Source of the DNA: an uncultured Clostridia bacterium
GTDB lineage: Bacteria > Bacillota > Clostridia > UBA1381
Assembly: GCA_910585795.1 (NCBI GenBank)
Contig: CAJUFV010000171.1
Coordinates: 8,501 to 72,500 of the forward strand
Reading direction: 5' to 3'
Length of the DNA stretch: 64,000 nucleotides
Both the position numbers and the translations under genes were made by a program. Positions 23,606 through 41,977 of this stretch are shown one piece after another (within the stretch, counting starts at the first letter, position 1; every line of letters begins with the position of its first letter). Under the pieces are notes generated by a model. That model was not told the origin of the DNA, made no database searches, and saw nothing but the letters and a program-made list of their open reading frames with translations.

Positions 23606-23744
23606 AATTCTGACCTCCTAATAATTTCTGTTTTCCTCCGCCTCATGGTCTTAAAGCGGCCTTTATTTTTTGATTTAACATATACCTGTACTGAAATCCG
23701 GACTATGTACCAGAGCCGTATTTTTATCCACGCGCTGTTTCGTT

Positions 23745-24523: not shown

Positions 24524-24589
24524 AACAGTCCCTCCGAAACCTTATTTCACACGCATGCAATGATATTTCCAACCCCCAATACTGATACA

Positions 24590-25391: not shown

Positions 25392-26189
25392 CTACTGAAG
25401 CTTCTGTGCCAGACGGTATATAACAACACAAGTCCATAGCTTTGTATTATCGAGACCAAGACCTTCTCCAGTACCTACAATAATACCATTATCCACACAC
25501 CACTGCACCGCTTCATGCGCCCATTCAGGCATATTACTGTCAATGTAATTATAAATAAACGGATTTTGCACCTTATACATTTCATTCTGCAAGACGTCTA
25601 TTCTCGCCTGTTCGGTAGAAATCATATTTTTAAGCTCCTCATACTGAGACATTGTAAGCTCCTCCTCCATTCTTTTTCCTATTATAGCATCGCAAATTGC
25701 CTGCGCGACTTCGTCCGCTCCCACTTTATGATACAGGTCGGCGTCTGACTGAGTATCAACAAAGCACACCTCTATCAGCATTGACCGCGCATTTGTTTTT
25801 CTTATTACATATAAATGCGAACCGTCTTTTATACCGCGGTTAATAAATCCAAGCTCCGCCATATTTTCACAAACAAGCTCAGCCGCTTCAAAACGCTGAC
25901 CGTTATAGGTATATACCTCTGTACCCCTTCCGCCGCCGCTGTTAAAATGTATCGACACAAACAAATCAAGCGGCTGCGCGTTTGCCTTAGCCACAATCTC
26001 CCTAAGATTTTCACCTACAGTTGGAGCATAATCGCTCGCGCAGTCGACAACTGTGACGCCGTTAGCGCGCAGTTTATCCATAAGTCTGTAACCAACCGCG
26101 CGGGTTTCATCACTTTCATTCAAATAACCAACCGCGCCGCTGCCTACAGTACCGCTTACTGTATGTCCGCAGTTTACTCCCACTATCAT
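25392..26189 (-). CDS. Endolysin: N-acetylmuramoyl-L-alanine amidase (Amidase_3) with a C-terminal putative wall-binding domain
   Basis: Amidase_3 blocks (VGVNCGH, FVSIHFNSGGGRGTEVY, LIEVCFVD). The C-terminal approximately 60 aa (PEWAHEAVQWCVDNGIIVGTGEGLGLDNTKLW) looks SLH-like, but that reading is tentative. Confidence 0.88.
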   Translation of the reverse strand: MIVGVNCGHTVSGTVGSGAVGYLNESDETRAVGYRLMDKLRANGVTVVDCASDYAPTVGENLREIVAKANAQPLDLFVSIHFNSGGGRGTEVYTYNGQRFEAAELVCENMAELGFINRGIKDGSHLYVIRKTNARSMLIEVCFVDTQSDADLYHKVGADEVAQAICDAIIGKRMEEELTMSQYEELKNMISTEQARIDVLQNEMYKVQNPFIYNYIDSNMPEWAHEAVQWCVDNGIIVGTGEGLGLDNTKLWTCVVIYRLAQKLQ

Positions 26190-26230
26190 CTATCTTCACC
26201 CCCGTTTTAATAATATGCCTTACTCTATTA

Positions 26231-26635
26231 TTATGTTACATCATTCCTATCTCTTAACTGAAGCAGTATATTTTTTAGTGAATCCGGCATCCTCGCGGAT
26301 GTGGCCGCGACGTTCTCAAGAATTGATATCCCCTCGTTAGCAAGATAAAACATTATAACTATCTCACGCACTGCCGCCGCACCGCCTGTTATAACCTGAA
26401 TTATATTAGCAAGCGCCACAATTATAAGAATAGTTATTTTTTTCAGTATACCCTTATAACCAGTTTCACTTGACAGTTTTTTTGTATATACCGCTTTAAT
26501 AATCCCCGTAATATAATCCATTGCCATAAGTATTACAAGCGCCCATAGTATGGTGTCCCACTGACCGAATATACCCGCGCATATTCCTCCGGCAACGCCT
26601 ATTAACACGCTTGCCGCATTAAAAATTTTATCCAT
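26231..26635 (-). CDS. Holin (phage_holin_4_1 / TcdE-like family)
   Basis: 134 aa with three TM helices and the MAMDYITGIIKA motif typical of this holin family. It lies directly upstream of the endolysin. Confidence 0.85.
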   Translation of the reverse strand: MDKIFNAASVLIGVAGGICAGIFGQWDTILWALVILMAMDYITGIIKAVYTKKLSSETGYKGILKKITILIIVALANIIQVITGGAAAVREIVIMFYLANEGISILENVAATSARMPDSLKNILLQLRDRNDVT

Positions 26636-28049
26636 TTGTAGCTATTTCCTTTCCGTTTATACATAATCTTCCGTTAGCGTTAACATTTATTGTATTTGCG
26701 CCTATTGTTATATTTTCCGCTGTAAGGTCACCGGTAAAATTCATTTTCCCGTCGGCACCGGTCTCAACCGCGCAGTTGCCGGCATTGTCTCTTATACGGC
26801 AGACAAATTGTCCGTTCTGATTTCCAAGCTGTACCTTAATAATACTTCCATTTGAAATTTTCAGCATATCTGAAAGCAGAGATAGCTCACCGGAATTACC
26901 GGAAAGTCTTATCCCTGAATTTGATATAACGCCGGCCACTGACTGCGCCTTCACAGTTCCATTTGATGTAGATATTTTAGCATAGCGTCTTGTAAGCGTT
27001 CCCATCTGTTCAAGATAAAAAAACAAATCACGCTTTACCCTTCCGATAGAAATAACACTGTTATCACTCTGATACGGATAATATTCGACCTTTATAACAC
27101 GCTCATGTATTTCATTTCCGTTATCAATAACTGTTATGCTGTCGCCTATTTCAGCTTTTTCTGCCGAGCCATACTGCGCAAGCTTAGATATATCTGCAAA
27201 TGTACCGGTTATATTAATACCAGGAACGTCAATACGTTCCTCATTCGTGCTGTCAAATTCCCACAAAGCGCGGCGCATAAGCTTGGACGGCTCCATATAA
27301 TCAGAATAGTCACGGTAACCGTCTCTAACTCCGTAAAGCTCCGCGTTCGCGCTCTGTATATAATGAACACCGCCGTTTACACTGCCGATATGAGCGTCAT
27401 CCTTTCCGTACGGATACAGACGCGTTACCATATCTGTTATATCACGCTCTACATTTATATTGCGCATATTTTTTGTAAGGTCAAGACGTATATGATTATC
27501 TCTGCCGATATGCTCAACAAGAGCCACCTTATAATTATCATTATATATCTCGCCTTTTCCGCAGTTTTCTATAACCGCTTTCATAACATCATACGGATTT
27601 GTCTTGTCCGTCGAAAAAAAATCTATCATAAACCCGTCATAATCAACGCGCTTCATACCAAGACGCGTAAGCTCGCTGTCACTCATAAGCGAAAATCTGC
27701 TTCCTGCAAATACCGCCTCCAATACCTCGCGTGGATTTACGCCAATCATGTCGGGAACATTCTGTATATGAATATTCGGGGCGTCCGAATTATAAATATG
27801 ATGACATTCCGCTTCAAGCATATTATCCTCTCCCCTGCTTCTGGAAACTCTGACAATTCGAAACGCCTGTCCCTCGCATACTATAAGCTTATTCTCTTCT
27901 ATCAGTCCTGATTTCTCATTCAGCGGATGTGAAAACTCAAGCATGTATGTACTGTTTATTTCTCTGGTAACCTTTACTCCGAAAGCATCGGGCAAAACTA
28001 TTCCCTTATTAAACGTCACACTGTTAAAAGGTAAAATTTTAAGCATCAT
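26628..28049 (-). CDS. Tail tip protein (Tal / prophage tail endopeptidase-like)
   Basis: 473 aa. The N-terminus (ILPFNSVTFNKGIVLPDAFGVKVTREINSTYMLEFSHP) matches the siphovirus tail-associated/endopeptidase-tail family. Its position after Dit fits that role. Confidence 0.75.
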   Translation of the reverse strand: MMLKILPFNSVTFNKGIVLPDAFGVKVTREINSTYMLEFSHPLNEKSGLIEENKLIVCEGQAFRIVRVSRSRGEDNMLEAECHHIYNSDAPNIHIQNVPDMIGVNPREVLEAVFAGSRFSLMSDSELTRLGMKRVDYDGFMIDFFSTDKTNPYDVMKAVIENCGKGEIYNDNYKVALVEHIGRDNHIRLDLTKNMRNINVERDITDMVTRLYPYGKDDAHIGSVNGGVHYIQSANAELYGVRDGYRDYSDYMEPSKLMRRALWEFDSTNEERIDVPGINITGTFADISKLAQYGSAEKAEIGDSITVIDNGNEIHERVIKVEYYPYQSDNSVISIGRVKRDLFFYLEQMGTLTRRYAKISTSNGTVKAQSVAGVISNSGIRLSGNSGELSLLSDMLKISNGSIIKVQLGNQNGQFVCRIRDNAGNCAVETGADGKMNFTGDLTAENITIGANTINVNANGRLCINGKEIATNG

Positions 28050-28881
28050 AGTCCCCCCAGTCTATTGTATCAAGATTAACCCCGTAATTAAATTCGGGTG
28101 TATACGAAACATCCAGCTTTACTAAATCACTTGTTGAATTTTCAAAATGCAGAATATTATTCCCCGCAGTAAATTCAAAAAATTCTCCGGTCACTCCGAC
28201 ATTGTTTCCGTTTACAGTCACGCTCTGTTTTTCAAAATCCGCTATACAGCTTCCGCCGCTGTCAAAGGAAATTGTTTTCCCGCCTAATGACAGAATAATA
28301 TTTCTGCCGCCATGTATACGTATGCTCGGACGCGCCGGACGCTCACCAAAGTTCCACACGGCAATATCCGTAGCGCCTGAAACTTCATAATGAACAGTCT
28401 CATCAAGCGAAATCGGAATATTATTGTCCAGCTTTATATCCATATCCAGTACAGGCCCGTCTGTACCGAAAATACACTTTCCAAAAGGACGTACACGCAC
28501 AGAAACCTCCAGCGCCGCATTTTTCCCTCCGTGATTCGGCATATAAATTATTTCATCTGATACTCTTCCATACCATACTGTATGAGGCATATCATCAAAA
28601 ATCAGTTCGCCTTTTCCCATAAGCCATCCGGAAATAAGTGACAGCTTATTCTGGAGCGTATATAAATTATCCTCGCACACATTTATAGTAATAATAAATG
28701 TTCTGTCATAAAAATATTCTCGCCCCGCCTGATTGGCCTCTGAAAAATCATACGCTCCGTCACGGCATGGAATATCAAGGGTATGAACCTTCGCTTCCGG
28801 ACGTATCGGTCTTGATTTTGTCTTTACAGTCACACCGAATTCCGAGGAATGCTTGTCCTTAAATTTAAAACCGTTTCTCAA
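28039..28881 (-). CDS. Distal tail protein (Dit, Sipho_tail family)
   Basis: 280 aa with N-terminal FKFKDKHSSEFGVTVKTKSRPIRPEAKVHTLDIPCRDGAYDF, typical of phage tail component/Dit proteins. It directly follows the tape measure gene. Confidence 0.8.
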   Translation of the reverse strand: MRNGFKFKDKHSSEFGVTVKTKSRPIRPEAKVHTLDIPCRDGAYDFSEANQAGREYFYDRTFIITINVCEDNLYTLQNKLSLISGWLMGKGELIFDDMPHTVWYGRVSDEIIYMPNHGGKNAALEVSVRVRPFGKCIFGTDGPVLDMDIKLDNNIPISLDETVHYEVSGATDIAVWNFGERPARPSIRIHGGRNIILSLGGKTISFDSGGSCIADFEKQSVTVNGNNVGVTGEFFEFTAGNNILHFENSTSDLVKLDVSYTPEFNYGVNLDTIDWGDYDA

Positions 28882-28894
28882 TCAATCACACTCC

Positions 28895-30631
28895 CTAGTT
28901 ATACTTACTATGGGCAATTGTTAATCCCACTCTGTTTTTCAGCGCGTCCACAATATCCGACGCGCTCGCGCTGATACTTATATTTCTGTTGTCGCTGAAT
29001 GAGCTCTGAGAAATGCTGATTGATTTTATCGCGCTGATAGTCTGCGCGAAAAGCGCGCTTATTGTATTTTCCAGATTGTTGACATCACAATTTACACTGC
29101 TTACTATTCCTTCTATATTCAGTCCTGACTGTTCAATAGTCGCAAGAAGATATTTTTTGTTTTTTTCAACTATGTCATAGCTGTTTTCCAGCAGCGCGAG
29201 TTTTTCACTATGCTCCTTTTGAAGCGCGAGCATTTCCTCCTCGCGTTTTATCTTCTTCATTTCCTCCTGAAGCGATTTGTATTTCTCAACGCCTCTTTCT
29301 GTTACCGCTCCCTTATATATTTCAAGCTGATGAGCGATTTCCGCCTTTGATTCAGCTCTGTCCGTATTTTTCCACTGCTCTTCAAGCGCCTTTTCCTCAT
29401 CCTCATACTGATTTTTTGTGTCCCTTATATAAGCCTTTTGCTTTAAAAGAAGCTCATCCACCTGCGCCATTTTAGCATCATATAAATTAAGTGTGGCCTC
29501 CATCGTATCATCTCTGTATTCCTGCCAGCCTATATGCTTTCCATCAAACATCTGCTGTATACGCTCTATGCTGCGCTCATAAAACTGAACCGGACTGTCT
29601 CCGGCCTCCTGCCAGTCATCATATGTATCTCGGATATTTTTCCAGTTTTTCGCGTCGCTTTTCCATTTCTCATACACGCCGTAACTTTTTTCATTCTCCA
29701 GCTTGCCTATTTTCAGGTCAACACCTGCTTTATATTCATAAAAATCATTCCATATTGCTTTCATTTCATCAGCGCTGTAAAGAGTCGACGCGGCCATCTC
29801 AGACACCATTGCATTATAATTTTCCTTCTGACGCTGATACGCCGCGATTTGCTCATCCACACCGGCGCCGTTTACCTCAACCTGATACTTTATCCACGCG
29901 TCAGAATTCTTTTTATAATCTGAAAGAGCTTCTGCGCTTTCCTGCTTCTGCGCTTTCCATATTTTCTGCTGCGCAGCAAATACTTCCTCCTGAATCTCTT
30001 TCACAACCTCGCTGTCATAGGAAAACTGCTCCATAAGTTCATTCCACCGTGCAAGCTCTTCCACAGGCGACATATTATGCGTCTTCTTATAATGGTTTAA
30101 ATCAGCTTTTTCAAATTCATAGAATTCATTATTTTTACCTCCGGCATAATGCGGTAGACCCATACCCTTCATAATTGCTTTTGTCTCGTCAGCGGTATAA
30201 ACCCTGTCTCCTCCGGACAGCGGTACAATAACATCACGTCCGCTGAACATCATAAGAGAACCGTTATGCTCAACAAGCTCCCTAGGGTCGCTTTTACCTC
30301 TTTCATCATTAATGACGGCAAGGCCTTCATCGGCATTACGCGTACCGCCTGCGAGAGCTGGCATACCCGCAACATTATACCGCACAGAGATTGTAACTGT
30401 CTTATCTGAAATACTGTTGATTTTAGCTCTTGCTGACTCAACTCCCGCGGCTGTATTATCAGCCGCGGTTAAATTAATTTTTGCCTCTTTTCCGCCAAAA
30501 TCCGTCATCACCTTACCGGCAGATGAATTGAGACGCGCTATCGCCGCTTCTGCCGCGCTAAGTGAGCTTAAAAGCCCTGACGCGTCACCGGTTATACTGA
30601 CAGATAAACTGGCCGCCTCTGCCATAATCAT
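28895..30631 (-). CDS. Tail tape measure protein (short, 578 aa)
   Basis: Largest ORF of the cluster and rich in helical/coiled-coil sequence. It lies immediately downstream of the G/GT chaperone pair and upstream of Dit. Confidence 0.75.
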   Translation of the reverse strand: MIMAEAASLSVSITGDASGLLSSLSAAEAAIARLNSSAGKVMTDFGGKEAKINLTAADNTAAGVESARAKINSISDKTVTISVRYNVAGMPALAGGTRNADEGLAVINDERGKSDPRELVEHNGSLMMFSGRDVIVPLSGGDRVYTADETKAIMKGMGLPHYAGGKNNEFYEFEKADLNHYKKTHNMSPVEELARWNELMEQFSYDSEVVKEIQEEVFAAQQKIWKAQKQESAEALSDYKKNSDAWIKYQVEVNGAGVDEQIAAYQRQKENYNAMVSEMAASTLYSADEMKAIWNDFYEYKAGVDLKIGKLENEKSYGVYEKWKSDAKNWKNIRDTYDDWQEAGDSPVQFYERSIERIQQMFDGKHIGWQEYRDDTMEATLNLYDAKMAQVDELLLKQKAYIRDTKNQYEDEEKALEEQWKNTDRAESKAEIAHQLEIYKGAVTERGVEKYKSLQEEMKKIKREEEMLALQKEHSEKLALLENSYDIVEKNKKYLLATIEQSGLNIEGIVSSVNCDVNNLENTISALFAQTISAIKSISISQSSFSDNRNISISASASDIVDALKNRVGLTIAHSKYN

Positions 30632-30858
30632 ACCTCCTCACCGTAAAACATTCTCAAATGCTCATTTTTATATTCCTTCTCCGTATCATCCTCCATAGCG
30701 TCAAGCATACGGAACATAACCCACGGATTTTGTCTGCCCACCTCGTCAGGCAGCAAATGATGGCACTGGAACAAAATAGGATAAATATCTCTCAAAGTGC
30801 CTCTGCCGCCTGACGTCACCCGTTTTTTGCGCTTAGAGCGTCTACATAAAAGCCCCAT
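30628..30858 (-). CDS. Tail assembly chaperone, T-extension ORF (expressed as a G-T fusion by -1 frameshift)
   Basis: This ORF is in the -1 frame relative to the upstream G ORF and overlaps it by 43 nt. It has no independent RBS, and its stop overlaps the tape measure start. Confidence 0.6.
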   Translation of the reverse strand: MGLLCRRSKRKKRVTSGGRGTLRDIYPILFQCHHLLPDEVGRQNPWVMFRMLDAMEDDTEKEYKNEHLRMFYGEEV

Positions 30859-31085
30859 AACTCAATGCACATCTTTGCTCTTTCGCCTATATCCAGACTG
30901 TCAATAATATCCTGTGTGGCTTCTGTCCCCTCAAACATATAATCCACCGCTTCACGGCAGATATTCAAAGGACCGTTTTTTTTATCGTCATTATGCGCGT
31001 CATTTATAATACACATAGCCTCAAAATCGAACGGCTTTGAAATATATTTCTGTTTATCTTTTGTAAATGTCAATGTGTGCTGCAT
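30816..31085 (-). CDS. Tail assembly chaperone (gpG-like)
   Basis: 89-aa acidic protein lying between the major tail gene and the tape measure gene. It carries the slippery site at its 3' end. Confidence 0.75.
   Translation of the reverse strand: MQHTLTFTKDKQKYISKPFDFEAMCIINDAHNDDKKNGPLNICREAVDYMFEGTEATQDIIDSLDIGERAKMCIELWGFYVDALSAKNG
30822..30828 (-). promoter_or_regulatory. Programmed -1 ribosomal frameshift slippery heptamer A_AAA_AAC
   Basis: The minus strand reads gcA AAA AAC ggg tga in the G frame. A -1 slip gives aaa aaa cgg gtg acg, which is the T frame. The site is 2 codons before the G stop. Confidence 0.65.
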
Positions 31086-31143
31086 ATTTTTCTCCTTTGT
31101 TTCTTATTACTAATTATTATCTAAAGTATAATGTTATTTTTAT

Positions 31144-31168
31144 CAGGCGCGGTCACTGACCGCACCTG
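31144..31168 (-). other. Intercistronic RNA hairpin after the major tail protein gene
   Basis: On the minus strand, caggtgcgg / ccgcgcctg forms a 9-bp stem including one G-U pair that is valid only in the minus-strand transcript. The loop is 7 nt. There is no U-tract. Confidence 0.4.
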
Positions 31169-31197
31169 TAATTGCAAATATAATCAATAATTTTATC

Positions 31198-31797
31198 TTA
31201 CTGTACTTCCGGATAATAGTTCATATCCGTAAACCAGTTTTCCTCAAAGCTCTCTCTTGAAATCCCCTCAGGCAGGTCGCTTTCGTCAAAGTACGCGTAA
31301 TAATTATTATCAAAATCACGCTGAAGAGCCGTATATGTCGCTTTAGCCGTCTGTCTGTCAATACTTCCATTGGACGGTTTTGTTTTACCGCCCACATTTG
31401 AAGCAAAGCTGTATGAGCCTTTATAATATCTAACATAACGGTATGAACCGTCCGACTTTAATATTCTCCACGCAACGCCAAAGTAAACCGTCTTTGTATC
31501 GTTGCCCACCTCAACAACGCCATTTTTCTGTGTAAGACCTCTCCACATTGCGTCAACCTCAGGCGGAATGTCAGCGTTTGTTATATCATGTCCAAGCTTT
31601 TCAATATAGCTTGTTGTCTCATACGCGCCGTTATCCGCGTCAAACACGTCAGCTCCGCCGGCGTCTGTCGGCGTAATCTCGACAGTTCCCTTTAGGTTGT
31701 AGGCCTCGCCGTACTGAACGCCGCTTTCCGCGTCAGACATCAGTTTAAAAAATGTATACTTGTCCACACCGATTGTAGGTAATGGTCTTTTAATCAT
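31198..31797 (-). CDS. Major tail protein (phi13/TP901-1-like family)
   Basis: 199 aa with N-terminal GVDKYTFFKLMSDAESGVQYGEAYNLKGTVEITPT, typical of the phi13-family major tail proteins of non-contractile tails. Confidence 0.85.
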   Translation of the reverse strand: MIKRPLPTIGVDKYTFFKLMSDAESGVQYGEAYNLKGTVEITPTDAGGADVFDADNGAYETTSYIEKLGHDITNADIPPEVDAMWRGLTQKNGVVEVGNDTKTVYFGVAWRILKSDGSYRYVRYYKGSYSFASNVGGKTKPSNGSIDRQTAKATYTALQRDFDNNYYAYFDESDLPEGISRESFEENWFTDMNYYPEVQ

Positions 31798-31859
31798 ATA
31801 TTCTTCCTCCGTTTATTATTTTTTTGTCTTAAGTAATTTTTAAAGCGTTTTAAGTTCAT

Positions 31860-32207
31860 TTATAAAGTAAAGTACTTTTGAAATCTCATTGTTCTGTGAT
31901 AAACCTTTTCATTTCTTTTGGGAACATCCATAGACATCTCCCTCGTCCAGCCGTCTTTCTCCATTACACTATTCACCCGCACAGAAATATCAGCACATTC
32001 TTTAGGAACCGCTGACCATATATCAACCTGTACATAGCCGTTTTGTATACACTCGCTGTTATCCGCATAAAAAGCGCCTTTTTCTTTAAGATTATAATAG
32101 CTTATAACCGGCAGTCTGTTAAATGCTTCCGGATACTGATATACAACCTTGCAGTTAAGCTCTGAAAGTGTTCTTTGGGCTTCAGTATTTATATCAATCA
32201 TAAGCAA
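31860..32207 (-). CDS. Tail terminator / tail completion protein (positional call)
   Basis: 115-aa ORF between the HK97 gp10-like gene and the major tail gene. Size and position fit a tail terminator. I recognised no decisive motif. Confidence 0.5.
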   Translation of the reverse strand: MLMIDINTEAQRTLSELNCKVVYQYPEAFNRLPVISYYNLKEKGAFYADNSECIQNGYVQVDIWSAVPKECADISVRVNSVMEKDGWTREMSMDVPKRNEKVYHRTMRFQKYFTL

Positions 32208-32214
32208 GTCCTCC

Positions 32215-32550
32215 TTAAATATCAGTTATTGCCTGAGCCATAGCCTCAAGCACTGCCGCTTCACTATCTATAAGAGACGGAATCAGATACGGCTGCGGAG
32301 ACATTTTCGAGGTACCGAATTCAACATATGCGGCATAATCTGTGTCTGCGTAAATTTCCGCTCTTCTGCCGTCACATTCCGCTCCTATTGACTCTCTAAG
32401 TGTTCCGGTATCAACAGGACATGCCGCTTTCGCATTATCACATACACACTGCGCTCCCGCGGCAATGATTGTTTCTATACTTTCTGATAATCTCGCGGAT
32501 ACCTCAGATAAACCCCCGTCATATGTAATATCAATGCCCATCCTCAACAC
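32215..32550 (-). CDS. HK97 gp10-family head-tail joining protein
   Basis: VDTGTLRESI ... YAAYVEFGTSKMSPQPYLIPSL matches the HK97 gp10 family signature. Confidence 0.8.
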   Translation of the reverse strand: MLRMGIDITYDGGLSEVSARLSESIETIIAAGAQCVCDNAKAACPVDTGTLRESIGAECDGRRAEIYADTDYAAYVEFGTSKMSPQPYLIPSLIDSEAAVLEAMAQAITDI

Positions 32551-32851
32551 CTCTCATCACTGCGGTAAGACCTAAACGACATTTGTCACTTCTTACAATT
32601 CTATACCAGTCTCCGCTGAACAAAACATATCTTCCAGCTATTAAAATATCATTTTTATCCGTAAATATTTTATAAGCCTTGTTTTCCGCAAAGCCGTATT
32701 CACTGCTTTCCATATCTCCTCCACAATGCTGTACATCACACGCGATTGTCCCGATAAAATTTTTTTCGCCTTTTCTTTCGTATGTGTTTTCTTCTGCCTC
32801 ATACACGTTTATTTCGGTATCATAAAATCTGTTAAACGGATTCATTGTCAC
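32531..32851 (-). CDS. Head closure / head-tail adaptor protein
   Basis: 106 aa ending in a WYRIVRSD-type motif common in phage head-tail adaptor (gp16/gp7-like) proteins. It overlaps both neighbouring genes. Confidence 0.7.
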   Translation of the reverse strand: MTMNPFNRFYDTEINVYEAEENTYERKGEKNFIGTIACDVQHCGGDMESSEYGFAENKAYKIFTDKNDILIAGRYVLFSGDWYRIVRSDKCRLGLTAVMRGVEDGH

Positions 32852-33200
32852 TCTCCTTTACAGCAATATCGGACGGCAGCTTTACATTCCTTGACACAAA
32901 AGGCTTAAGACGCTCCGCGTATTCACTCAAAAAATTATTTTTTCCTTCCGCATATTCCACACGTCTTTCTCCCTCTGTAACAGATTTTACACCCTCCCGC
33001 ATATTCAGCCGATAGCGCTCGGCAGTAAGCGTAGGAATAAGGCTGACAAGCGTACGAGGAAGCACATCAAGACGACAGTACGAAAGTACAGCGTTCACAG
33101 TATCATCAATCAGAAGCATAAGCAATTCATCATTTTTTTCATCTTTTATTTCCAGAAGCGTTTTCGCCGCATCAAGAATTTCTATTTTAGTGTCCTCCAC
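32832..33200 (-). CDS. gp6-like head-tail connector protein
   Basis: 122 aa with N-terminal AKTLLEIKDEKNDELLMLLIDDTVNAVLSYCRL, typical of the Phage_connect_1/gp6-like family. It lies directly after the capsid gene. Confidence 0.75.
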   Translation of the reverse strand: MEDTKIEILDAAKTLLEIKDEKNDELLMLLIDDTVNAVLSYCRLDVLPRTLVSLIPTLTAERYRLNMREGVKSVTEGERRVEYAEGKNNFLSEYAERLKPFVSRNVKLPSDIAVKESDNESV

Positions 33201-33223
33201 AATTCACACAGCCTTTCTTTTTA

Positions 33224-34084
33224 TTACGCGCCGGTAGCTTTTGAAGCCTCTGAAGTGCCTGCCGAGGCCGTACTTTTAAACACATAAATTGATTTTTTCT
33301 TATTATTGAGCACGAATGCGTCATAATACACTCTTCCCTCTACAAGCCAGCCATTTATTCCGGGAGGGTTATCATGAATTTTATACTCAGACAGCTTTAC
33401 CGGAGATGTTGTGGCAGCCTGATTTACTATAATAAGCTCAACACCCTCAGGGAAATATGACGAAGGAACAATAACAACTGGAATACCGTCAACAGTACCC
33501 ACCTGACCCTTTATAAGCATTTCCTGCGACATATCGCCGTTTCTTATAAAGCTTGAGTCCTCCTTAATATTTTTATAAAAACTTGGAGATACAAACGCGC
33601 AGCATCCCGCAAGCGGAACATTCTCTTCAATAAGCGCGGCTGTTCCTGTAAGGAATATATCATATGCCGTTGTTTTTGACACTGTTCCCGTAGCTGTAGT
33701 TCCCGCGCCGGCACAAATTTTTTCAAAACGATACTTGTCAATCTCAGGTATAACCACCTCGCGGAGTTGTCTCTGGAGAGCCGCCCCCGCCGCGTTTGAC
33801 ATCTGCGTATCATTATATGTCCCCCTGTCAATTGTAAATGTAAAACTCCTGTCCTGCGACATTGTCATTTCCTGTATAGTATTGTCCAGCTCCTGCGGAG
33901 TTCCGTAGCGACTTGTTCCGCTTACGGAATAATCATTCATCTTAGCCGTAGGAACACTGTATACATTAACTGTTTTCGCACCGACAAAATCATAATCATT
34001 ATTTACTGCCTGTGAAGTCATTGATTCTCTGGCAAATTTTTCGTCAATTTTCTGAGCATATTTGCTTGCATAGTTTATAGCCAT
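33224..34084 (-). CDS. Major capsid protein
   Basis: 286-aa ORF immediately after the scaffold gene, preceded by a strong RBS region. Its composition and position are typical of SPP1-like, protease-less head modules. Confidence 0.8.
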   Translation of the reverse strand: MAINYASKYAQKIDEKFARESMTSQAVNNDYDFVGAKTVNVYSVPTAKMNDYSVSGTSRYGTPQELDNTIQEMTMSQDRSFTFTIDRGTYNDTQMSNAAGAALQRQLREVVIPEIDKYRFEKICAGAGTTATGTVSKTTAYDIFLTGTAALIEENVPLAGCCAFVSPSFYKNIKEDSSFIRNGDMSQEMLIKGQVGTVDGIPVVIVPSSYFPEGVELIIVNQAATTSPVKLSEYKIHDNPPGINGWLVEGRVYYDAFVLNNKKKSIYVFKSTASAGTSEASKATGA

Positions 34085-34111
34085 TATATTTTCATCCTTT
34101 CCGTATATAAA

Positions 34112-34675
34112 TTACATTCCGAGTCCTGTTAAAAATGGGTCACCCGCTTGTTCGCTTTCTCTCGAAACACGCGGCGGATTTCCTTTTAGTCTGTGGGAAA
34201 GTCCGTCTTCAATCGCTTTCATGTATTCCGCCTTGAAAATGCTGATGTTTTCCATCATAACCTCTTTGTCATTATCAGCAATCATTCCCGCAAAGCTTAC
34301 AGGAAGATTCTGAGCAGCAAGCTCCTTAGCCGCTTCAAATTCAGCTCTTTCACTCATATACTGCTGTCTTTCTGTCTCAAAATTCTTCTCTCTTTTATCC
34401 ATTTCAGCTCTGGCCCTTTCCTCTGACGACATAGTCGCCAGCTTTGCGGCCTCCTCGCGTTCAGAGCTTATTCTAGCTTCAAAATCCTTTTCCCATAAGC
34501 CTCTTTCATTCTTAACAGCCTCACTGACATATTTTTCAATAAGTGATTTTAACTCGTTGTTTTTATGTCCCCCATTATTCTCGGAAGCATTATTTTTCTC
34601 TTTTTCATTTTCTTTAAGATTATTTAGTGTCCCTTTATTTTTTCTTTCGTTCATTTTTTCTGTAACTCCTTTCAT
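34112..34675 (-). CDS. Scaffolding protein (DUF4355-like)
   Basis: 187 aa, highly charged and helical (EREEAAKLATMSSEERARAEMDKREKNFETERQQY). It sits between the portal and capsid genes. Confidence 0.75.
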   Translation of the reverse strand: MKGVTEKMNERKNKGTLNNLKENEKEKNNASENNGGHKNNELKSLIEKYVSEAVKNERGLWEKDFEARISSEREEAAKLATMSSEERARAEMDKREKNFETERQQYMSERAEFEAAKELAAQNLPVSFAGMIADNDKEVMMENISIFKAEYMKAIEDGLSHRLKGNPPRVSRESEQAGDPFLTGLGM

Positions 34676-34709
34676 AAAACATCACAGCGTAAAATATTTT
34701 AGCGTCCCC

Positions 34710-36023
34710 TTACTCTGACGCGGCATTCATATTTTCATTTAGCATGCGTTCCTTTGAAGCAAGCTGCGCTTCCTCCTTAGGGTCGCCGACAAATGAAAGC
34801 TGTGAAAGCAGTGTCTCGCTTGTGGCAATCCCTGACAGATTGCGTATCATCTGTGAAACCTCAAGCTCGTTAACCGGCAGATTTCTTGTAAACACAACGT
34901 CAATCCTGTGCATCGGAACGTATTCCATCGCGCCCTTTAGTGAAAGAAAATTCACATACAGCTCAAAGCGTCTTTTCAGTGATTTTGTAAAATACCGCTC
35001 CTTATTTCTCACATGCTGCTCAAAGCCCATAAGCTTATATTTTATCGCCACACCCGATAAATTTGTTCCAAAGGTTTGTTCTGTAAGGTCCGGTATCATT
35101 GAAAAACGATGTATATCCATTTTAAGACTGTTTTTCAGCACCTCAATATCACTTTCAGACATAACCTTTGACAAATATCTTGCGTCCGCGCCTTCATAAC
35201 CCATAAGTATTCGTTCCTCACGCAGCTTTCTGGCCTGCTCGCTGTCAATATCAATATTAGTCAGAAATAAAAACGCGTCCACAAACTGTTCTTTATCGTT
35301 CACTCTGTCTGACTCCAGAATATTATAGGCGTCTATAAGAGGAATAAGCTGTTCAAAATCCCCCTGCCTCTCCTCGTTATTACGATACTCCACAAGCGGC
35401 ATAGCTCCGAAATAATGACGCTGCTTTTCCGCAAGACGCATATTCGAGAAGCTGTCGGTATCGTTTTCATATGTATAAATCATATTTGCATCGCAGACAA
35501 CACAGCATACTCCGGTAATATTTCCGTCAATATCACGCTTTCTGTAATAATGTATGCCGTAAAGAGGCATTTCGCCAACACCCGCTCCATACACGATAAA
35601 TGTGTTAGTCGGAGGCAGAGACACACTTTTAGGCTGCGACATATCATCCGCGCATATCAGTTCATATGCTTTACCGTAAATGCTCATATTTTTTTCAAGC
35701 TCGGCGTCAATGCTTGCCATATCCTGAACGGAAAAGCTATTCTTAACCGCCTCAATATCATACCCGTCGGAACAGGTATATGAAACAGGATTACCCACAA
35801 GATAGCTTTTCGCAATATCAACTATATATTTTGCATGATTGCATACTACCCTGTTATTTGCGACAGCTCCGCTGTAACGCCGGCGTTCGCATATAGCATG
35901 CTTTCCTATATAATAATTATATAATTTTTCATATCGCTCCTGCTCCAGAGCATGCCTTGAAATCAGCTTGGCAAGTATTGTACCGGTAATACCGTCCTTT
36001 AGAATTTCTTCATCAATAATCAT
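34710..36023 (-). CDS. Portal protein (SPP1 gp6-like family)
   Basis: 437 aa with blocks such as YYIGKHAI, NHAKYIVDIAKSYLVGNPVSY and GVAIKYKLMGFE. It follows the large terminase gene. Confidence 0.9.
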   Translation of the reverse strand: MIIDEEILKDGITGTILAKLISRHALEQERYEKLYNYYIGKHAICERRRYSGAVANNRVVCNHAKYIVDIAKSYLVGNPVSYTCSDGYDIEAVKNSFSVQDMASIDAELEKNMSIYGKAYELICADDMSQPKSVSLPPTNTFIVYGAGVGEMPLYGIHYYRKRDIDGNITGVCCVVCDANMIYTYENDTDSFSNMRLAEKQRHYFGAMPLVEYRNNEERQGDFEQLIPLIDAYNILESDRVNDKEQFVDAFLFLTNIDIDSEQARKLREERILMGYEGADARYLSKVMSESDIEVLKNSLKMDIHRFSMIPDLTEQTFGTNLSGVAIKYKLMGFEQHVRNKERYFTKSLKRRFELYVNFLSLKGAMEYVPMHRIDVVFTRNLPVNELEVSQMIRNLSGIATSETLLSQLSFVGDPKEEAQLASKERMLNENMNAASE

Positions 36024-36051
36024 TTGTACATTCCTTTCTGTAAACTTAATA

Positions 36052-37329
36052 CTATATGTTCAGTTCACTTCTTTTGATAATTCTTGCTTTTCTGTGATTA
36101 ATTTCCTCTTCCAGCGCGTAACGCACGGCATCAATAGTATGATTGTTTTTATCGGGATAATCTGACCTGAATTCACCGTCTGTACCGCGCTCAAGCTCAT
36201 ACTCAGAAAACTCTCTTGCCGCATTTGGACATGTGACAGGGTCAATAATAATTTTCCTGAGTCCCTGCAAAAAATGTATTCCGTACTCAATACTGTCAGG
36301 ACCTTTTTTAGCGCCTCTTGCTCTAAGTCCAAATGACCTTAAATCATTTATACTCTTCGGCTCCGCGCTGTCACAAATAATTATCCTGTCTGTAAAGGCT
36401 TTTTCATAGATTTTTTCCGCGGCCGCGCTGTTGCTCATTCCCTTCGCGTAAATTTCGTCCAGAATAAATAAAACATCGTTATGAAAATAACATACCATAT
36501 ATACAAAGGGGTCAGCCGCAAATCCAAAATCTATTCCGCATTTCACATTATCAAACATATTTCTTTCAGAATCCGTAATTTCGCGTATATCAAGATTATC
36601 AAAAATCTCTCCGCCGGTACCTGTAACTTCACCGAGATATTCATGCCTGTACCTATCAGGATATAACTTTTTTAGATACTCTGCTTCCAAAAAAAATTGT
36701 TCTCCCAGCCACTTACGAGGCACATCAAGGTAAGTACTTTTATGTATAAGCATATCGTCTCTTTCATTAAGAGCTTCACGATTCACCCAGCTGCGACGGT
36801 TTTGAGGAGGATTATATGAATAGAAAACAGTATATTTTTCACCGCCGCGCATCATTGATTGATTAATTGAGCGAATTTCTCTCATTCCGTAAAATTCGTC
36901 CAGCTCCTCATACCAGATATATCTTATATAACCGTTTGTTACCTTTGTTGACTTTAGCTTCTGCACCTTATCCGCACCGCGGAACAAAATTTTCTGTCCC
37001 GTTTTTTTATAAATCATTTCAGGGATGCTGGGTTTTATATCCCATAAATCTGATACTCCCAGCTTTTCTATAGCCCATTCCAGCTGTGCGAACACGCTGT
37101 CACGCAGATATGCTCCTACCTTTCTCAAGGCAACAGCATTTGTAAGAGGATTTTTCATTATTCCGAGGATAATTTCAATACTGACAAAGCTTGATTTTGT
37201 CGACCCTCGTCCGCCGCAAAGCCAGAAATGCGTATAATCCTCTATAGACATATGTACTGTATAAAAGGCAGGCGCAATAATCAAATCAAGACTGCGTTTT
37301 TCTGATTTTTTCCGCAATGTTATCCACAA
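36052..37329 (-). CDS. Terminase large subunit (PBSX/Terminase_3-like)
   Basis: Walker A CGGRGSTKSS, Walker B-like IWYEELDEF, and C-terminal nuclease blocks (GIDFGFAADP, HTIDAVRYAL). The start is uncertain (TTG 37329 or a downstream TTG). The ORF overlaps the TerS fragment by up to 44 nt. Confidence 0.9.
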   Translation of the reverse strand: MWITLRKKSEKRSLDLIIAPAFYTVHMSIEDYTHFWLCGGRGSTKSSFVSIEIILGIMKNPLTNAVALRKVGAYLRDSVFAQLEWAIEKLGVSDLWDIKPSIPEMIYKKTGQKILFRGADKVQKLKSTKVTNGYIRYIWYEELDEFYGMREIRSINQSMMRGGEKYTVFYSYNPPQNRRSWVNREALNERDDMLIHKSTYLDVPRKWLGEQFFLEAEYLKKLYPDRYRHEYLGEVTGTGGEIFDNLDIREITDSERNMFDNVKCGIDFGFAADPFVYMVCYFHNDVLFILDEIYAKGMSNSAAAEKIYEKAFTDRIIICDSAEPKSINDLRSFGLRARGAKKGPDSIEYGIHFLQGLRKIIIDPVTCPNAAREFSEYELERGTDGEFRSDYPDKNNHTIDAVRYALEEEINHRKARIIKRSELNI

Positions 37330-37543
37330 TCACAACATCACTGACTTCATTCTGATGTCTGTCTCCAAACATTCCGTAATACTTGCCCAGAAGCTCCGCC
37401 GCCTTAAAGGAATCAGAAAATTTTATATTTTCCTCGGCATAGCCCTCCTGCCGCATTACATCAGTAAAAAACTCCAGAATTTCTTTTTCATCAGCAATAG
37501 TTATAATTATCATTCCTTTCATTGTAATAAAGAAATAAAACAC
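37286..37543 (-). CDS. Small terminase fragment: C-terminal half of a Terminase_2-type TerS, N-terminal HTH domain absent
   Basis: ADEKEILEFFTDVMRQEGYAEE...SFKAAELLGKYYGMFGDR matches the conserved core/C-terminal motif (..ELLGK..GMF..) of Terminase_2 small subunits. The ORF has at most 85 codons and no convincing SD for any of its candidate starts. Confidence 0.55.
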   Translation of the reverse strand: MFYFFITMKGMIIITIADEKEILEFFTDVMRQEGYAEENIKFSDSFKAAELLGKYYGMFGDRHQNEVSDVVIVDNIAEKIRKTQS

Positions 37544-37582
37544 CGTAATCTAATACACAGTTCATTTTCATATCACTTCCTT

Positions 37583-37783
37583 TTAAAATAAAACATCTGT
37601 CCTGTACACACATTCACTGCAGCCTATACATTCCTCATCCTCATCCATATAATAGAATTCAGGCGTTTCAGCTTTGCATACAGGACATACGCTTACATGT
37701 CTGTCATCACAGCTTCCGTAATTTTCCGTACGCTCCATTTCCATTGCAAGAAGCGCCATCGGGTCATCATTTGTATAAATCAT
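37583..37783 (-). CDS. Small Cys-rich zinc-ribbon protein, first gene of the late operon
   Basis: 66 aa with CPVCKAE...CIGCSEC (two CxxC pairs). A strong RBS (GAAAGGAG) lies 5 nt upstream of the ATG. Confidence 0.55.
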   Translation of the reverse strand: MIYTNDDPMALLAMEMERTENYGSCDDRHVSVCPVCKAETPEFYYMDEDEECIGCSECVYRTDVLF

Positions 37784-37865
37784 TTGTACTCCTTTCTATC
37801 TTTTTCAGATACTTTCGCTTTAAAAATTTTTATCATAAGTGCCGGCTATTCCTTAAGATATTGTG

Positions 37866-37894
37866 ATTATATCATAAAAAGATACTTTAGTCAA
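37866..37894 (-). promoter_or_regulatory. Near-consensus sigma-A promoter for the phage-like late operon
   Basis: The minus strand reads TTGACT (37889-37894)-N17-TATAAT (37866-37871). Repeat copies at 37881-37888 and 37893-37900 fall in the spacer and over the -35. Confidence 0.55.
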
Positions 37895-37964
37895 TACTTT
37901 GTATAATTTTAGGATACTTTGTACAATATTCTGTTGTATTTTCAGATACTTTTTTGTTTATCTA

Positions 37965-37993
37965 TTGCAAAAAGTTTCAAATTATGATACTAT
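37965..37993 (+). promoter_or_regulatory. Candidate promoter for the repressor gene
   Basis: TTGCAA (37965-37970)-N17-TACTAT (37988-37993). The -10 coincides with the sixth repeat copy. Confidence 0.4.
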
Positions 37994-38077
37994 ATATATG
38001 AAAACTAATAAAATCTCATAAATTATCAATATACATATACAAAACACCTGACTGAAAAAAACAAAGGAGAATATTAT

Positions 38078-38704
38078 ATGACTACAGGAGAAAGAATTAA
38101 AAGACTTCGCAAGGAACATAATTTAACTCAGGAAGAGCTTGGAGCACATCTGGGCATACAGAAAGCCGCGATACAAAAATATGAAAAGGGTACTGTAACA
38201 AACATTAAACGTGACTCTCTTATAAAGCTTGCGCAAATTCTGGACACAACACCGGAATATCTCTTAGGCTGGGAAGACACACCATCTAATATTGAAGCCT
38301 TTGACACGTCGGATTTTATAAATATACCTATAATAGGCAGAGTTGCCGCCGGTACTACCTGTTTTGCAGATAATAATATCGTAGATTATGAACCGGTACA
38401 TAGAAGCAATATAACAAACGGTGAACAATACGCTTTTTTGAGAGTTGTGGGCGACAGTATGTATCCTGTATTTATGGAGGGTGACCTTGTGCTTGTGCGC
38501 TGTCAATCCTCCGTAGACAACGGCAGCTACGCAGTAGTTACGATTGACGGCGAGGACGGCGTTGTAAAAAAAATCATATATGGAAATGATTTTATTGAGC
38601 TTCATTCCATAAATCCGATGTACCCGCCGCGGCGTTTTGAAGGTGAGGAGGTTCTGCGAATACGTGTATTCGGCCTTGTCAAGGAAATTAAAAGAAAATT
38701 TTAG
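38078..38704 (+). CDS. cI/LexA-like self-cleaving repressor (XRE HTH + S24 peptidase)
   Basis: N-terminal HTH_XRE (ERIKRLRKEHNLTQEELGAHLGIQKAAIQKYEKG). It carries a LexA-type cleavage region IPIIGRVAAGTT (Ala-Gly), the Ser nucleophile in VVGDSMYP and Lys in GVVKKI. RBS AAAGGAG lies upstream. Confidence 0.88.
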   Translation: MTTGERIKRLRKEHNLTQEELGAHLGIQKAAIQKYEKGTVTNIKRDSLIKLAQILDTTPEYLLGWEDTPSNIEAFDTSDFINIPIIGRVAAGTTCFADNNIVDYEPVHRSNITNGEQYAFLRVVGDSMYPVFMEGDLVLVRCQSSVDNGSYAVVTIDGEDGVVKKIIYGNDFIELHSINPMYPPRRFEGEEVLRIRVFGLVKEIKRKF

Positions 38705-40591: not shown

Positions 40592-41977
40592 ATGCAAAAA
40601 GACAGAAGAATTGGTGAGGAATGCGGAGTATTCGCTATATATGACCCTGACGGTGAATGCGCGAAAAACACATATTACGGACTTTACGCGCTTCAGCACA
40701 GAGGACAGGAAAGCTGTGGCATAGCGGTTAACAATAATCGTAATATTACACATTACAAGGATATGGGGCTTGTAAATGACGTGTTTAATGATAAAATACT
40801 CACCAAGCTCAGCGGCACAATGGCAGTGGGGCATGTCCGCTATTCCACGACGGGAGAAAGTATGCGTGAAAACGCGCAGCCGCTTGTTTTGCGGTACAGC
40901 AAGGGCAATATTGCCATTGCACATAACGGAAATCTCGTTAACAAAGATACTCTTGCTCGTGAGCTGAGTATTACAGGCGCTATTTTTCAAACAACAACCG
41001 ATACAGAAATGATTGCGTATACCATAGCCAAGGAACGGCTCAAATCAGGAAGTATAGAAGCGGCTGTAGAAAAATCAATAAATCGGCTTATCGGCTCATT
41101 TTCACTTATTGTTATGAGTCCGCAAAAGCTGATAGCGGCACGCGACCCATGGGGGTTCAGACCGTTATGCATGGGCAGAAAAGGAAACGCTGTTATCTTT
41201 GCTTCAGAAAGCTGCGCTCTAGACTCCATAGGCGCAGATTTTGAGCGTGATTTGCTGCCTGGTGAAATTATAATTGTAAAAAACGGCGAAATCAAAAGCA
41301 TAACAACACATACAAACAAAAAACCTCATTCAATGTGTATATTTGAATATCTTTATTTTGCCCGTCCCGACAGTATAATTGAGGGACAATCCGTGCATGA
41401 CTCGCGAATGCTTGCAGGTAAATATTTAGCGCAGGAATATCCGGCTGAAGCAGATGTAGTAATAGGAGTGCCGGATTCCGGACTAAGCGCGGCAATGGGC
41501 TTCGCCAAGGAATCAAAAATCCCGTACGGCATCGGCTTTGTAAAAAATAAATACATAGGCAGAACCTTCATTCAGCCGTCACAGTCAATGCGTGAAAATT
41601 CGGTAAGAATCAAGCTGAATGTTTTAAAAAGTACCGTGGAAAACAAACGTGTTGTTATGGTAGATGATTCTATTGTCCGCGGAACGACTTCAAAAAGGAT
41701 TGTAAAGCTTCTAAGAAGCTTCGGCGCGAATGAGGTACATGTACGCTCGTCAGCTCCGCCGTTTATGTGGCCGTGCTATTTCGGAACTGACATTCCGTCC
41801 CGTGACCAGCTTGTGGCGTGTAAATACAACATGGAAGAAATACGGAAGCTTATCGGCGCGGACAGTATAGGATTTTTAAGCACAGACGCGCTGAAAAAAA
41901 TTATTCCCGACGCGCGCTGCGGTTATTGTGACGGATGCTTCAGCGGCAGGTATCCTGTTGATATACAGACAGAATAA
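40592..41977 (+). CDS. purF: Amidophosphoribosyltransferase (canonical, [4Fe-4S]-type with propeptide)
   Basis: The propeptide MQKDRRIGEE is followed by the catalytic CGVFAIY. Also present are YYGLYALQHRGQES, the AHNGNLVN oxyanion block, the PRPP motif VVMVDDSIVRGTT, and Cys ligands (MCIFEY, WPCYFG, CGYCDGC). Confidence 0.95.
   Translation: MQKDRRIGEECGVFAIYDPDGECAKNTYYGLYALQHRGQESCGIAVNNNRNITHYKDMGLVNDVFNDKILTKLSGTMAVGHVRYSTTGESMRENAQPLVLRYSKGNIAIAHNGNLVNKDTLARELSITGAIFQTTTDTEMIAYTIAKERLKSGSIEAAVEKSINRLIGSFSLIVMSPQKLIAARDPWGFRPLCMGRKGNAVIFASESCALDSIGADFERDLLPGEIIIVKNGEIKSITTHTNKKPHSMCIFEYLYFARPDSIIEGQSVHDSRMLAGKYLAQEYPAEADVVIGVPDSGLSAAMGFAKESKIPYGIGFVKNKYIGRTFIQPSQSMRENSVRIKLNVLKSTVENKRVVMVDDSIVRGTTSKRIVKLLRSFGANEVHVRSSAPPFMWPCYFGTDIPSRDQLVACKYNMEEIRKLIGADSIGFLSTDALKKIIPDARCGYCDGCFSGRYPVDIQTE

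Follow-up and report, generated by a model that had tools for sequence, protein, structure and literature searches.

A small terminase apparently reduced to its oligomerisation core in a candidate gene-transfer-agent-like cassette of gut Clostridia

How does a phage-derived packaging module select its DNA when its small terminase (TerS) lacks the domain that reads DNA? The question is raised by a terS gene found in a stretch of 64,000 nucleotides (contig CAJUFV010000171.1 of an uncultured Clostridia bacterium, positions 8,501 to 72,500), hereafter called the window. The gene belongs to a phage-derived element of 13.3 kb at window positions 25392-38704, in which a repressor gene is divergent from the minus-strand late genes. 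In the phages SPP1 and SF6 it is the helix-turn-helix (HTH) domain of TerS that selects the packaging sequence pac, a role which Buttner and colleagues reportedly described in 2012. The protein of the window appears to be an SPP1/SF6-type TerS reduced to its oligomerisation core and C-terminal strand. We consider it very likely that it serves as a functional TerS without a DNA-binding domain in a domesticated element and, with less assurance, that this element is probably a siphovirus cassette similar to PBSX and to gene transfer agents (GTAs), inducible by the SOS response and operating by a mechanism that includes random packaging. A preliminary description of the locus had located the TerS open reading frame (ORF), a preceding Cys-rich ORF, a gap of 39 nt between them and an overlapping ORF of 26 codons, and on re-reading all of these coordinates hold:

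37583-37783, minus strand: acidic Cys-rich (Zn-ribbon-like) protein of 66 aa, first gene of the late operon, an ORF with the strong ribosome-binding site (RBS) aaaggag
37544-37582: gap of exactly 39 nt between the Cys-rich ORF and the TerS ORF
37491-37571, minus strand: small ORF of 26 codons, beginning at the ancestral Shine-Dalgarno (SD)/ATG position and ending at a TGA within TerS codons A-D-E
37286-37522, minus strand: short TerS without DNA-binding domain, 78 aa from ATG 37522 (alternative ATG 37513; maximal ORF to GTG 37543)

Read from its GTG, the TerS ORF (37286-37543, minus strand) has 85 codons and includes two in-frame ATGs, 37522 (MKGM, 78 aa) and 37513 (MIII, 75 aa), one of which is probably the start. 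The 78-aa version is identical (100%) to P0001, a protein called in public assemblies. In an alignment with the Pfam family Terminase_2 (PF03592), which the preliminary description had proposed, residues 28-67 cover model positions 108-139 of 141 (E=0.0012); the score of 20.0 bits is below the gathering cut-off of 26.1 bits, and other short members of the family score 18-20 bits. The PHROG family phrog_51 (terS) is matched with E=1.2e-7, the window protein covering model positions 149-238 of 261. A profile of the short family compared with the PDB identifies the small terminase of SF6 (3zqp/3zqq, E=4.8e-9) through chain residues 87-160 of 164 only, a region that corresponds to the oligomerisation core and the C-terminal VIIVDD strand. 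The central helical hairpin of the core is present, the profile being aligned both to the core of 3zqp and to the isolated core construct 3zqm, and so is the C-terminal beta-strand, in which GDVIIVDNI of the short TerS is aligned to NQVIIVDD of SF6. The AlphaFold2 (AF2) monomer is a helical hairpin (helices 12-24 and 35-48), with 10-residue blocks over the two helices averaging 76-91 in predicted local distance difference test (pLDDT), a poorly defined C-terminus and an unfolded C-terminal strand. It had been proposed earlier that the ORF next to the large terminase (TerL) encodes a Terminase_2 core without HTH, and this is borne out by Pfam, PHROG and the SF6 profile, all of which cover the C-terminal part only.

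The homology of the short TerS to the SF6/SPP1 protein G1P (PF03592; 3ZQP/3ZQQ, core 3ZQM-O) thus concerns the core and the C-terminal strand, with the shared motifs E(I/V)LE-LT, KA(A/L)ELLGK and VIIVDD. As in SF6 and SPP1, too, the genes that follow directly are those of a headful-type TerL and an SPP1-type portal. Unlike G1P, the short TerS is without the N-terminal HTH of about 65 residues, remains below the Pfam threshold and is acidic (pI 4.75, net charge -5 in the window protein, which has no basic arm), and the loop between its two core helices is about 16 residues shorter than that of SF6. No Pfam match of the window TerS covers the N-terminal HTH (Terminase_2 model positions of about 1-55). 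Full-length relatives from Paenibacillus, an Erysipelotrichaceae metagenome-assembled genome (MAG) and Christensenella (141-151 aa) cover PF03592 positions 1-139 with E=1e-29 to 1e-34 and read ...HTH...IAKQDEVLEFLTDVMRG, and the short proteins start exactly at that IA-x-x-E(I/V)LEFLT boundary. In a six-frame search of the 64-kb window these relatives align from residue 66/67 onward only (37498-37313), and their N-terminal 65 residues find no credible match in it (best other match E=0.21). The HTH is therefore absent, neither frameshifted nor hidden, and the earlier statement that it cannot be encoded here holds for the whole window.

Is such a protein a working gene or a relic? A homologue search among 5.8 billion proteins returned 55 sequences, all of 49-100 aa and mostly of 65-78 aa, with identities of 47-88% when P0001, the window's own protein, is left aside. 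The core FKAAELLGK..G.F is invariant among them, and E(I/V)LE(F/Y)LT and GDVIIVDNI are nearly so. Nonsynonymous divergence (dN) of terS is 0.12-0.32, against synonymous divergence (dS) that is saturated (about 1 or more) in every comparison, so that dN/dS can be given only as an upper bound, which is 0.26. Since the sequence is conserved in at least 13 species, with low dN against saturated dS, the homology is far beyond chance, and we take the short TerS to be a conserved working gene and a trait of its family, not a local accident.

The same division between short and full-length proteins is seen on a larger scale. A profile search of 1.84 billion cluster representatives gave 1014 relatives, the best 150 of which are bimodal in length: short proteins are matched from residue 1-30, and proteins of 105-215 aa from about residue 50-77. 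Among 80 viral contigs of IMG/VR with TerS relatives only one protein (on L102) is short, and this contig is a fragment of the same element; the other relatives have 40-110 in-frame residues upstream, those displayed carrying the HTH signature KQKxFA..Y, and one (L153) is ambiguous as to an upstream HTH. The closest phage-like TerL (56% identity) lies on the faecal virome contig MT835595.1, where the paired TerS is full-length, with HTH, and runs off the contig end. Two further comparisons were set aside: the nearest full-length relative by core identity (L020, 47%) belongs to a different prophage with a P22-type coat protein and is uninformative on the timing of HTH loss, and Clostridium phages of the phiCP13O type (TerL 48% identical) carry a different TerS family.

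The ORF could instead be what is left of an originally full-length terS decaying in a defective prophage, where it is neither translated nor required any more. This can be argued from the sub-threshold Pfam score of the ORF, from candidate ATGs without a properly spaced SD and from the out-of-frame small ORF at the ancestral start position. The retention of length and sequence in 55 homologues from at least 13 species, with saturated dS and dN/dS of at most 0.26, contradicts this dead-remnant option of the preliminary description; moreover all 18 neighbouring genes are equally intact, and GGAAAGGAATG is invariant among the members of the sub-clade to which the window belongs. We regard decay as extremely improbable.

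The unusual start region is largely particular to this sub-clade. In most species a strong SD (GAGGTGA, AGGAGGTGA or AAAGGAG) precedes a start codon located 14-17 nt past the upstream stop, and the weak SD noticed earlier thus applies to the window and its close relatives (L007, L099, L100 and L101) and not to the other species. In these five loci the junction between the Cys-rich gene and terS is longer by about 55 nt or more, with a further insert of about 50 nt in L101; the ancestral ATG position now reads ATA or ATC, and the sole canonical TerS start is the ATG inside GGAAAGGAATG. The ancestral SD and ATG now open the small ORF, which in the window is preceded by AAGGAAGTGAT and runs one nucleotide out of phase with terS. 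Its equivalent in L007 has 25 codons and encodes a different peptide. The frame of the small ORF differs from that of terS in the window, L007 and L101; in L099 and L100 it forms an in-frame extension, giving products of 87-89 aa. Self-similarity within the junction is weak (6 of 500 shuffles reach the observed score) and lends weak support to a duplication in the sub-clade. A programmed frameshift from the small ORF into terS, an expression route that the preliminary description had allowed for, was rejected, as neither the sequence nor the frame of the small ORF is conserved; because peptide and frame vary among relatives, a functional leader peptide is disfavoured as well. In this sub-clade TerS is likely to be translated by translational coupling or by weak initiation.

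What kind of element maintains this gene? Its remaining genes, together with the first host gene beyond its left end, are as follows:

38078-38704, plus strand: repressor, XRE-type HTH and S24 (LexA/CI-like) autopeptidase (HTH_3 E=2.4e-14; Peptidase_S24 E=7e-26, positions 1-109 of 116)
36052-37329, minus strand: TerL, Terminase_3 (PBSX-type) ATPase and RNase-H-like nuclease (Terminase_3 E=3.7e-39; Terminase_3C E=4.6e-20; PHROG terL families)
34710-36023, minus strand: SPP1-type portal (Pfam SPP1_portal E=6.5e-102)
34112-34675, minus strand: scaffold, DUF4355 (Pfam E=3.5e-25)
33224-34084, minus strand: major capsid protein (PHROG phrog_422 major head protein E=5e-67)
32832-33200, minus strand: connector, head-tail joining
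32531-32851, minus strand: head protein, head-tail joining
32215-32550, minus strand: HK97 gp10-like protein, head-tail joining
31860-32207, minus strand: tail terminator, head-tail joining
31198-31797, minus strand: major tail protein, siphovirus tail
30628-31085, minus strand: tail chaperones, siphovirus tail
28895-30631, minus strand: tape measure protein of 578 aa, siphovirus tail
28039-28881, minus strand: Dit, siphovirus tail
26628-28049, minus strand: Tal, siphovirus tail
26231-26635, minus strand: holin (Pfam Phage_holin_4_1 E=1e-37)
25392-26189, minus strand: Amidase_3 endolysin at the left end of the element (Pfam E=2.8e-27)
24590-25087: host purE, beyond the left end (AIRC E=3.7e-59)

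The start of TerL is uncertain (TTG 37329, 37317 or 37284), and its gene overlaps the 3' end of terS. Between purE and the repressor there are 18 head, tail and lysis genes and nothing else, each ORF having a head, tail, packaging or lysis role or being the Cys-rich ORF. The tail is of the non-contractile type: its genes encode a major tail protein, a tape measure, Dit and Tal, and neither a sheath nor a baseplate gene is among them. None of the ORFs of the element (25392-38704) encodes an integrase, an excisionase or a replication protein; the window is free of tRNA genes, and a search for attachment (att) sites found no repeat of 12 nt or more shared by the two flanks. GC content is 41.4% in the element, closely similar to the 40.1-40.4% of the flanks. 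The host flank consists of purE, a GNAT gene, purD, purM and purN on the left and of an M16 peptidase, IreB and purF on the right. The left-hand genes purE, purD, purM and purN, together with a gene similar to IMP cyclohydrolase (purH-type), occupy 19491-25087 on the minus strand, and purF lies on the plus strand at 40592-41977, past the M16 peptidase and IreB.

The same gene order (repressor, then Cys-rich protein, short TerS, TerL, portal and so on to the lysin) is found in six metagenome contigs (L001-L006) and in 13 GTDB species representatives (L007-L019). The right-hand flank of IreB, M16 peptidase and repressor adjoins the cassette in L001-L017 and L019, the exception being L018. Carriers are uncultured Clostridia from mouse, rabbit and human gut and one isolate, Lachnospiraceae bacterium MD329 (L010); one homologue bears the name Hominilimicola sp. 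Every database copy with a source name is annotated as a hypothetical protein. Identities across the related loci are 64-89% for TerL, 67-88% for the portal, 71-91% for the capsid protein and 52-77% for TerS, and the identity of element genes tracks that of the host M16 peptidase (r=0.85 for TerL, 0.77 for the portal). Values of dS are about 1 or more (saturated) for element genes and flanking host genes alike, and dN/dS is 0.01-0.35 across all 18 element genes. The element thus appears to be domesticated and maintained by its hosts, because a neutrally drifting defective prophage would not keep 18 intact genes over such divergence, and we read the cassette as vertically inherited under purifying selection. 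The GTA-like setting suggested in the preliminary description is supported by these data, which show an element without integrase or replication genes that is passed on vertically. The left purE flank is kept in a close species (L037) and not in the human-gut species, so that only the right flank is a fixed landmark. In human gut contigs (L038-L069) about 1.1 kb of extra sequence lies between Tal and holin, and the left flank is not composed of pur genes. Within this human-gut cluster, one TerS variant (P0242, 75 aa) is recorded in identical form on at least 1000 public contigs, and those cluster members that bear a name are annotated as hypothetical protein only.

Small size and the possession of its own terminase and capsid genes could make the element a mobile phage satellite of the capsid-forming island type, dependent on a helper whose packaging the short TerS would redirect; a preprint of 2026, which describes further GTA-like candidates in mouse-gut Clostridia, notes an overlap with capsid-forming islands for some of them. 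A satellite of this kind is hard to reconcile with the lack of integrase, replication gene, att repeat and tRNA described above, with a complete tail and lysis set that leaves nothing to borrow from a helper, and with a chromosomal site that is the same in most species and has co-diverged with the host genes. We give this explanation hardly any credence.

How would such a domesticated cassette be switched on? Its control region (37784-38077), between the divergent repressor and late genes, contains the following signals:

37866-37894, minus strand: late promoter, TTGACT, 17 nt, TATAAT, with extended -10 TG (11 of 12 consensus matches)
37797-37811: operator-like palindrome TATC-N7-GATA, shortly before the first gene's RBS
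37870-37884: second copy of TATC-N7-GATA, over the promoter spacer and the -10

All relatives retain the block TTGAC(A/T)AAAGTATCTTTTTATGATATAAT and the palindrome preceding the RBS. Four to five AAAGTATC repeats are scattered through the region (37807-37815, 37880-37888, 37912-37920 and 37944-37952), and palindromes and repeats keep their positions across species. A conserved repressor promoter, TTGCAA...TACTAT, is located in the same region, and all related species share this layout. The repressor matches the PHROG family phrog_4 (transcriptional repressor, E=9e-43) and has the motifs AAG, GDSM and VKK in a complete S24 domain, like LexA and CI. It is present in every related locus with 67-88% identity and adjoins the late operon in all but L009, where (3400-9800) the block of repressor, M16 peptidase and IreB is inverted and lies about 6 kb from the operon, with promoter and operators kept; at this distance the repressor must act in trans. 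Since a LexA/CI-like S24 repressor faces a conserved promoter with operators, the trigger is most likely an induction of the SOS type. In the rabbit-gut loci L012 and L013, GC-rich inserts of about 300-500 nt, made of palindromic units similar to repetitive extragenic palindromic (REP) sequences, lie between the late promoter and the Cys-rich gene.

The first product of this promoter is the Cys-rich protein, whose gene immediately precedes the short terS in all family members examined. Does it replace the missing DNA reader? The preliminary description had suggested that the Zn-ribbon protein could be a surrogate DNA-binding partner of TerS. Its motifs are CPVC...CIGCSEC, and 38 homologues were found, all of 65-70 aa; the 24 that were aligned have a mean column identity of 71%, share five invariant Cys (24/24) and begin with MIYSNDDPMALLAME.ERTGNYG. 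Searches in Pfam and the PDB assigned it to no family and gave only weak matches to Cys motifs (ferredoxin, PsaC, hydrogenase), and AF2 could model it with low confidence only (pLDDT 60). Two CxxC knuckles, C33-P-x-C36 and C55-x-x-C58, are invariant even in distant phage homologues which lack C52. These findings support a four-Cys Zn-ribbon as the predicted fold, and a 4Fe-4S or ferredoxin-like reading of the CP...CxxCxxC pattern was downgraded, C52 being missing in the distant homologues. The latter (46% identity) occur in large-phage contigs of up to 151 kb (IMG/VR, L184-L192), keep four of the five Cys (CPxC and CxxC) and have no terminase nearby; in L186 (6001-6204), for instance, the homologue lies among an NAD-dependent DNA ligase, an SH3/3D cell-wall hydrolase, a guanylate kinase and an intein-containing NrdD. 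With such homologues in large phages and no terminase beside them, the protein is less likely to bind DNA or to be an obligate partner of TerS. The protein is also strongly acidic (net charge -12, pI 4.05), which, together with these distant homologues, speaks against the suggested surrogate role. We consider a surrogate DNA binder unlikely, and a protein-binding regulator or DNA-mimic-like factor more likely than a reader of pac.

The same evidence bears on the explanation that packaging is still sequence-specific, a defined region being preferred through recognition by the Cys-rich protein, by a host factor or by a basic N-terminal arm of TerS. The constant position of the Cys-rich gene just before the short terS would fit this, as would the basic N-terminal arms of some relatives. 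The charge of the Cys-rich protein, the acidic and armless TerS of the window, the large-phage homologues without a terminase nearby and an element without replication or excision genes to amplify a pac-containing region all point the other way, and we hold this explanation to be very unlikely. Another outcome imagined in the preliminary description, a naturally short TerS with a DNA-binding surface of its own, is realised in part: the family is naturally short, and no such surface is evident in the window TerS, given its net charge and pI.

Which known systems does the cassette resemble? The Rhodobacter GTA (RcGTA) of the Alphaproteobacteria is multi-locus and controlled by CtrA/GafA, whereas the present element is a single locus with a LexA/CI-like repressor in Clostridia. 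Both are vertically inherited, phage-derived clusters without replication or integration genes, and in both a short TerS without recognisable DNA-binding domain (gp1 in RcGTA) is encoded directly upstream of TerL. According to Sherlock et al. (2019, PMC6854486), the TerS proteins of GTAs, RcGTA gp1 among them, have no DNA-binding domain and fall short of those of phages by 10-50% in length, with predicted lengths of 92-125 aa against 65-78 aa here; the likeness is one of description. In ancestry, too, the element differs from RcGTA. A TerS without a DNA-binding domain was thus already known from GTAs, and what is new is an additional GTA-like cassette with an unusually minimal TerS of clear origin.

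A closer parallel by habitat is FpGTA of Faecalibacterium (Borodovich et al., 2026, PMC12946183). Its operon is headed by a TerS without obvious DNA-binding domain and continues with TerL, portal, scaffold and capsid; it has no replication genes, is conserved across the genus, and is regarded by its authors as the second GTA-like system in Gram-positives after PBSX (PMC12946183). The present element shares with it a host among gut Clostridia, a TerS of this kind first in the packaging order and the lack of replication genes. FpGTA is podovirus-like, is divided into two loci (10.5 and 5.5 kb) and has been shown experimentally to form 40-nm particles with about 9 kb of DNA (PMC12946183), whereas our element, a candidate known from its genes, is siphovirus-type and has everything in one locus of 13.3 kb, including a repressor and, in first place, the Cys-rich gene. 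A scan of 185,579 species genomes with the TerS pattern returned no Faecalibacterium locus, and therefore the cassette and FpGTA are probably of independent origin. A literature search on the element and its hosts (Hominilimicola, UBA1381, MD329) found no mention of it, and the GTA papers and the preprint are likewise silent.

PBSX of Bacillus subtilis is similar in being a single-locus, repressor-controlled, non-replicating and chromosomally fixed element with a TerL of the Terminase_3 PBSX family and its own holin and lysin. It is about 28 kb long, has a contractile tail, in contrast to the non-contractile tail of our element, and packages fragments of 13.4 kb. Its TerS (XtmA) is long and not truncated.

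This architecture of one locus, repressor, PBSX-family TerL and lysis genes is also compatible with a PBSX-like killer particle, i.e. a headed bacteriocin kept for killing or lysis, in which packaging would only mature the heads for tail attachment. The authors of FpGTA leave the same option open for their particle (PMC12946183), and in RcGTA TerS is reported to be needed for tail attachment and capsid maturation (PMC6854486). The tail of our element is non-contractile, with tape measure, Dit and Tal and no sheath, which argues against a killer. A tail of this type is not known to kill as PBSX does. The explanation further concerns the purpose of the particle and leaves the identity of TerS unchanged; we consider it doubtful, though deserving of attention.

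We return to the domesticated, SOS-inducible siphovirus cassette as the probable account. Here DNA damage would cause a RecA-stimulated self-cleavage of the XRE/S24 repressor, whose loss would free the single late promoter for expression of, in order, the acidic Cys-rich protein, short TerS, TerL, portal, head, tail, holin and lysin. The TerS core would keep the ring-building and TerL-contacting part without the pac-reading HTH, and its ring could switch on headful packaging by the PBSX-type TerL at the SPP1-type portal. As nothing would read the sequence and no basic surface stands in for the HTH, packaging could start at any point of the chromosome, and lysis would release particles filled with arbitrary host DNA. 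We infer each of these steps, namely that a ring forms and activates TerL, that the SOS response induces the cassette, and that DNA is packaged at random and delivered; the randomness in particular we derive from the missing HTH and the headful type of TerL and portal.

Several points weigh against this account. In a Foldseek search with the TerS model the SF6 core was ranked first, non-significantly (E=4), a result that we do not use as evidence because a two-helix protein is too small for the method. The TerS start of the window has no well-spaced SD, and expression in this strain could be low. Some short relatives possess a basic N-terminal arm (MARTKVAGKRE, MAVSRGSRKIAKE) that could contact DNA. 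PBSX packages randomly with a long TerS, which implies that random packaging does not depend on losing the HTH; in our element, too, the loss may not be its cause. The closest capsid proteins (55-58% identity) come from phages of 34-38 kb; the head may accordingly hold the whole 13-kb element, at about three times the cassette length, unlike the heads of classical small-headed GTAs.

A bolder version would have the element as an active, SOS-triggered GTA of the siphovirus type, in which the smallest known TerS and the acidic, Zn-binding product of the first gene form a two-part initiator or switch in place of pac recognition, and where the acidic protein might be a DNA mimic or a modulator of the repressor or of TerL. 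We think this unlikely; if true, it would concern a widespread lineage of gut Clostridia, one carrier species of which has its TerS on at least 1000 public contigs.

GTA-like systems known from beyond the Alphaproteobacteria are few, and the first in human-gut Clostridia was reported only in 2026. The cassette is a candidate for an independent, siphovirus-type, single-locus GTA in another gut lineage, relevant to gene flow in the gut, and having at least one cultured carrier (Lachnospiraceae bacterium MD329) makes it directly testable. The short TerS can be regarded as a natural minimal construct for the roles of TerS beyond DNA recognition, with an ancestry traceable residue by residue to a structurally solved family, and GTA-like elements of Clostridia could be sought with its signature M-x-I-A-x-E-E[IV]LE[FY]LT...FKAAELLGK...VIIVD.

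Packaging modules fixed in clostridial chromosomes appear to have lost the HTH repeatedly. The genome scan also yielded further lineages of short TerS, with proteins of about 78 aa (Ornithomonoglobus type) and about 71 aa (Ruminiclostridium type). Loci of Ca. Ornithomonoglobus and other Clostridia MAGs (L022, L024-L030) have HTH-less, short TerS-like ORFs of 71-78 aa (e.g. MSRQRRIATHTEVLEFLTDVMRRD...) with short basic N-terminal arms. One member of the P0023 cluster, P0249, is 608 aa long, probably a fusion call of TerS and TerL due to an assembly or frameshift artefact. In Ruminiclostridium MAGs (L032-L035; e.g. L035, 9900-12700) a short TerS of about 71 aa, TerL and portal stand alone among host genes, with a Mur-ligase gene on one side and FRG/ABC-transporter genes on the other, and genes for head, tail or lysis are missing from the vicinity. 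Upstream of TerS the frame starts with MIYND..ERYGY, resembling the N-terminus of the Cys-rich protein, and this trio could be a stripped-down or multi-locus relative of the element.

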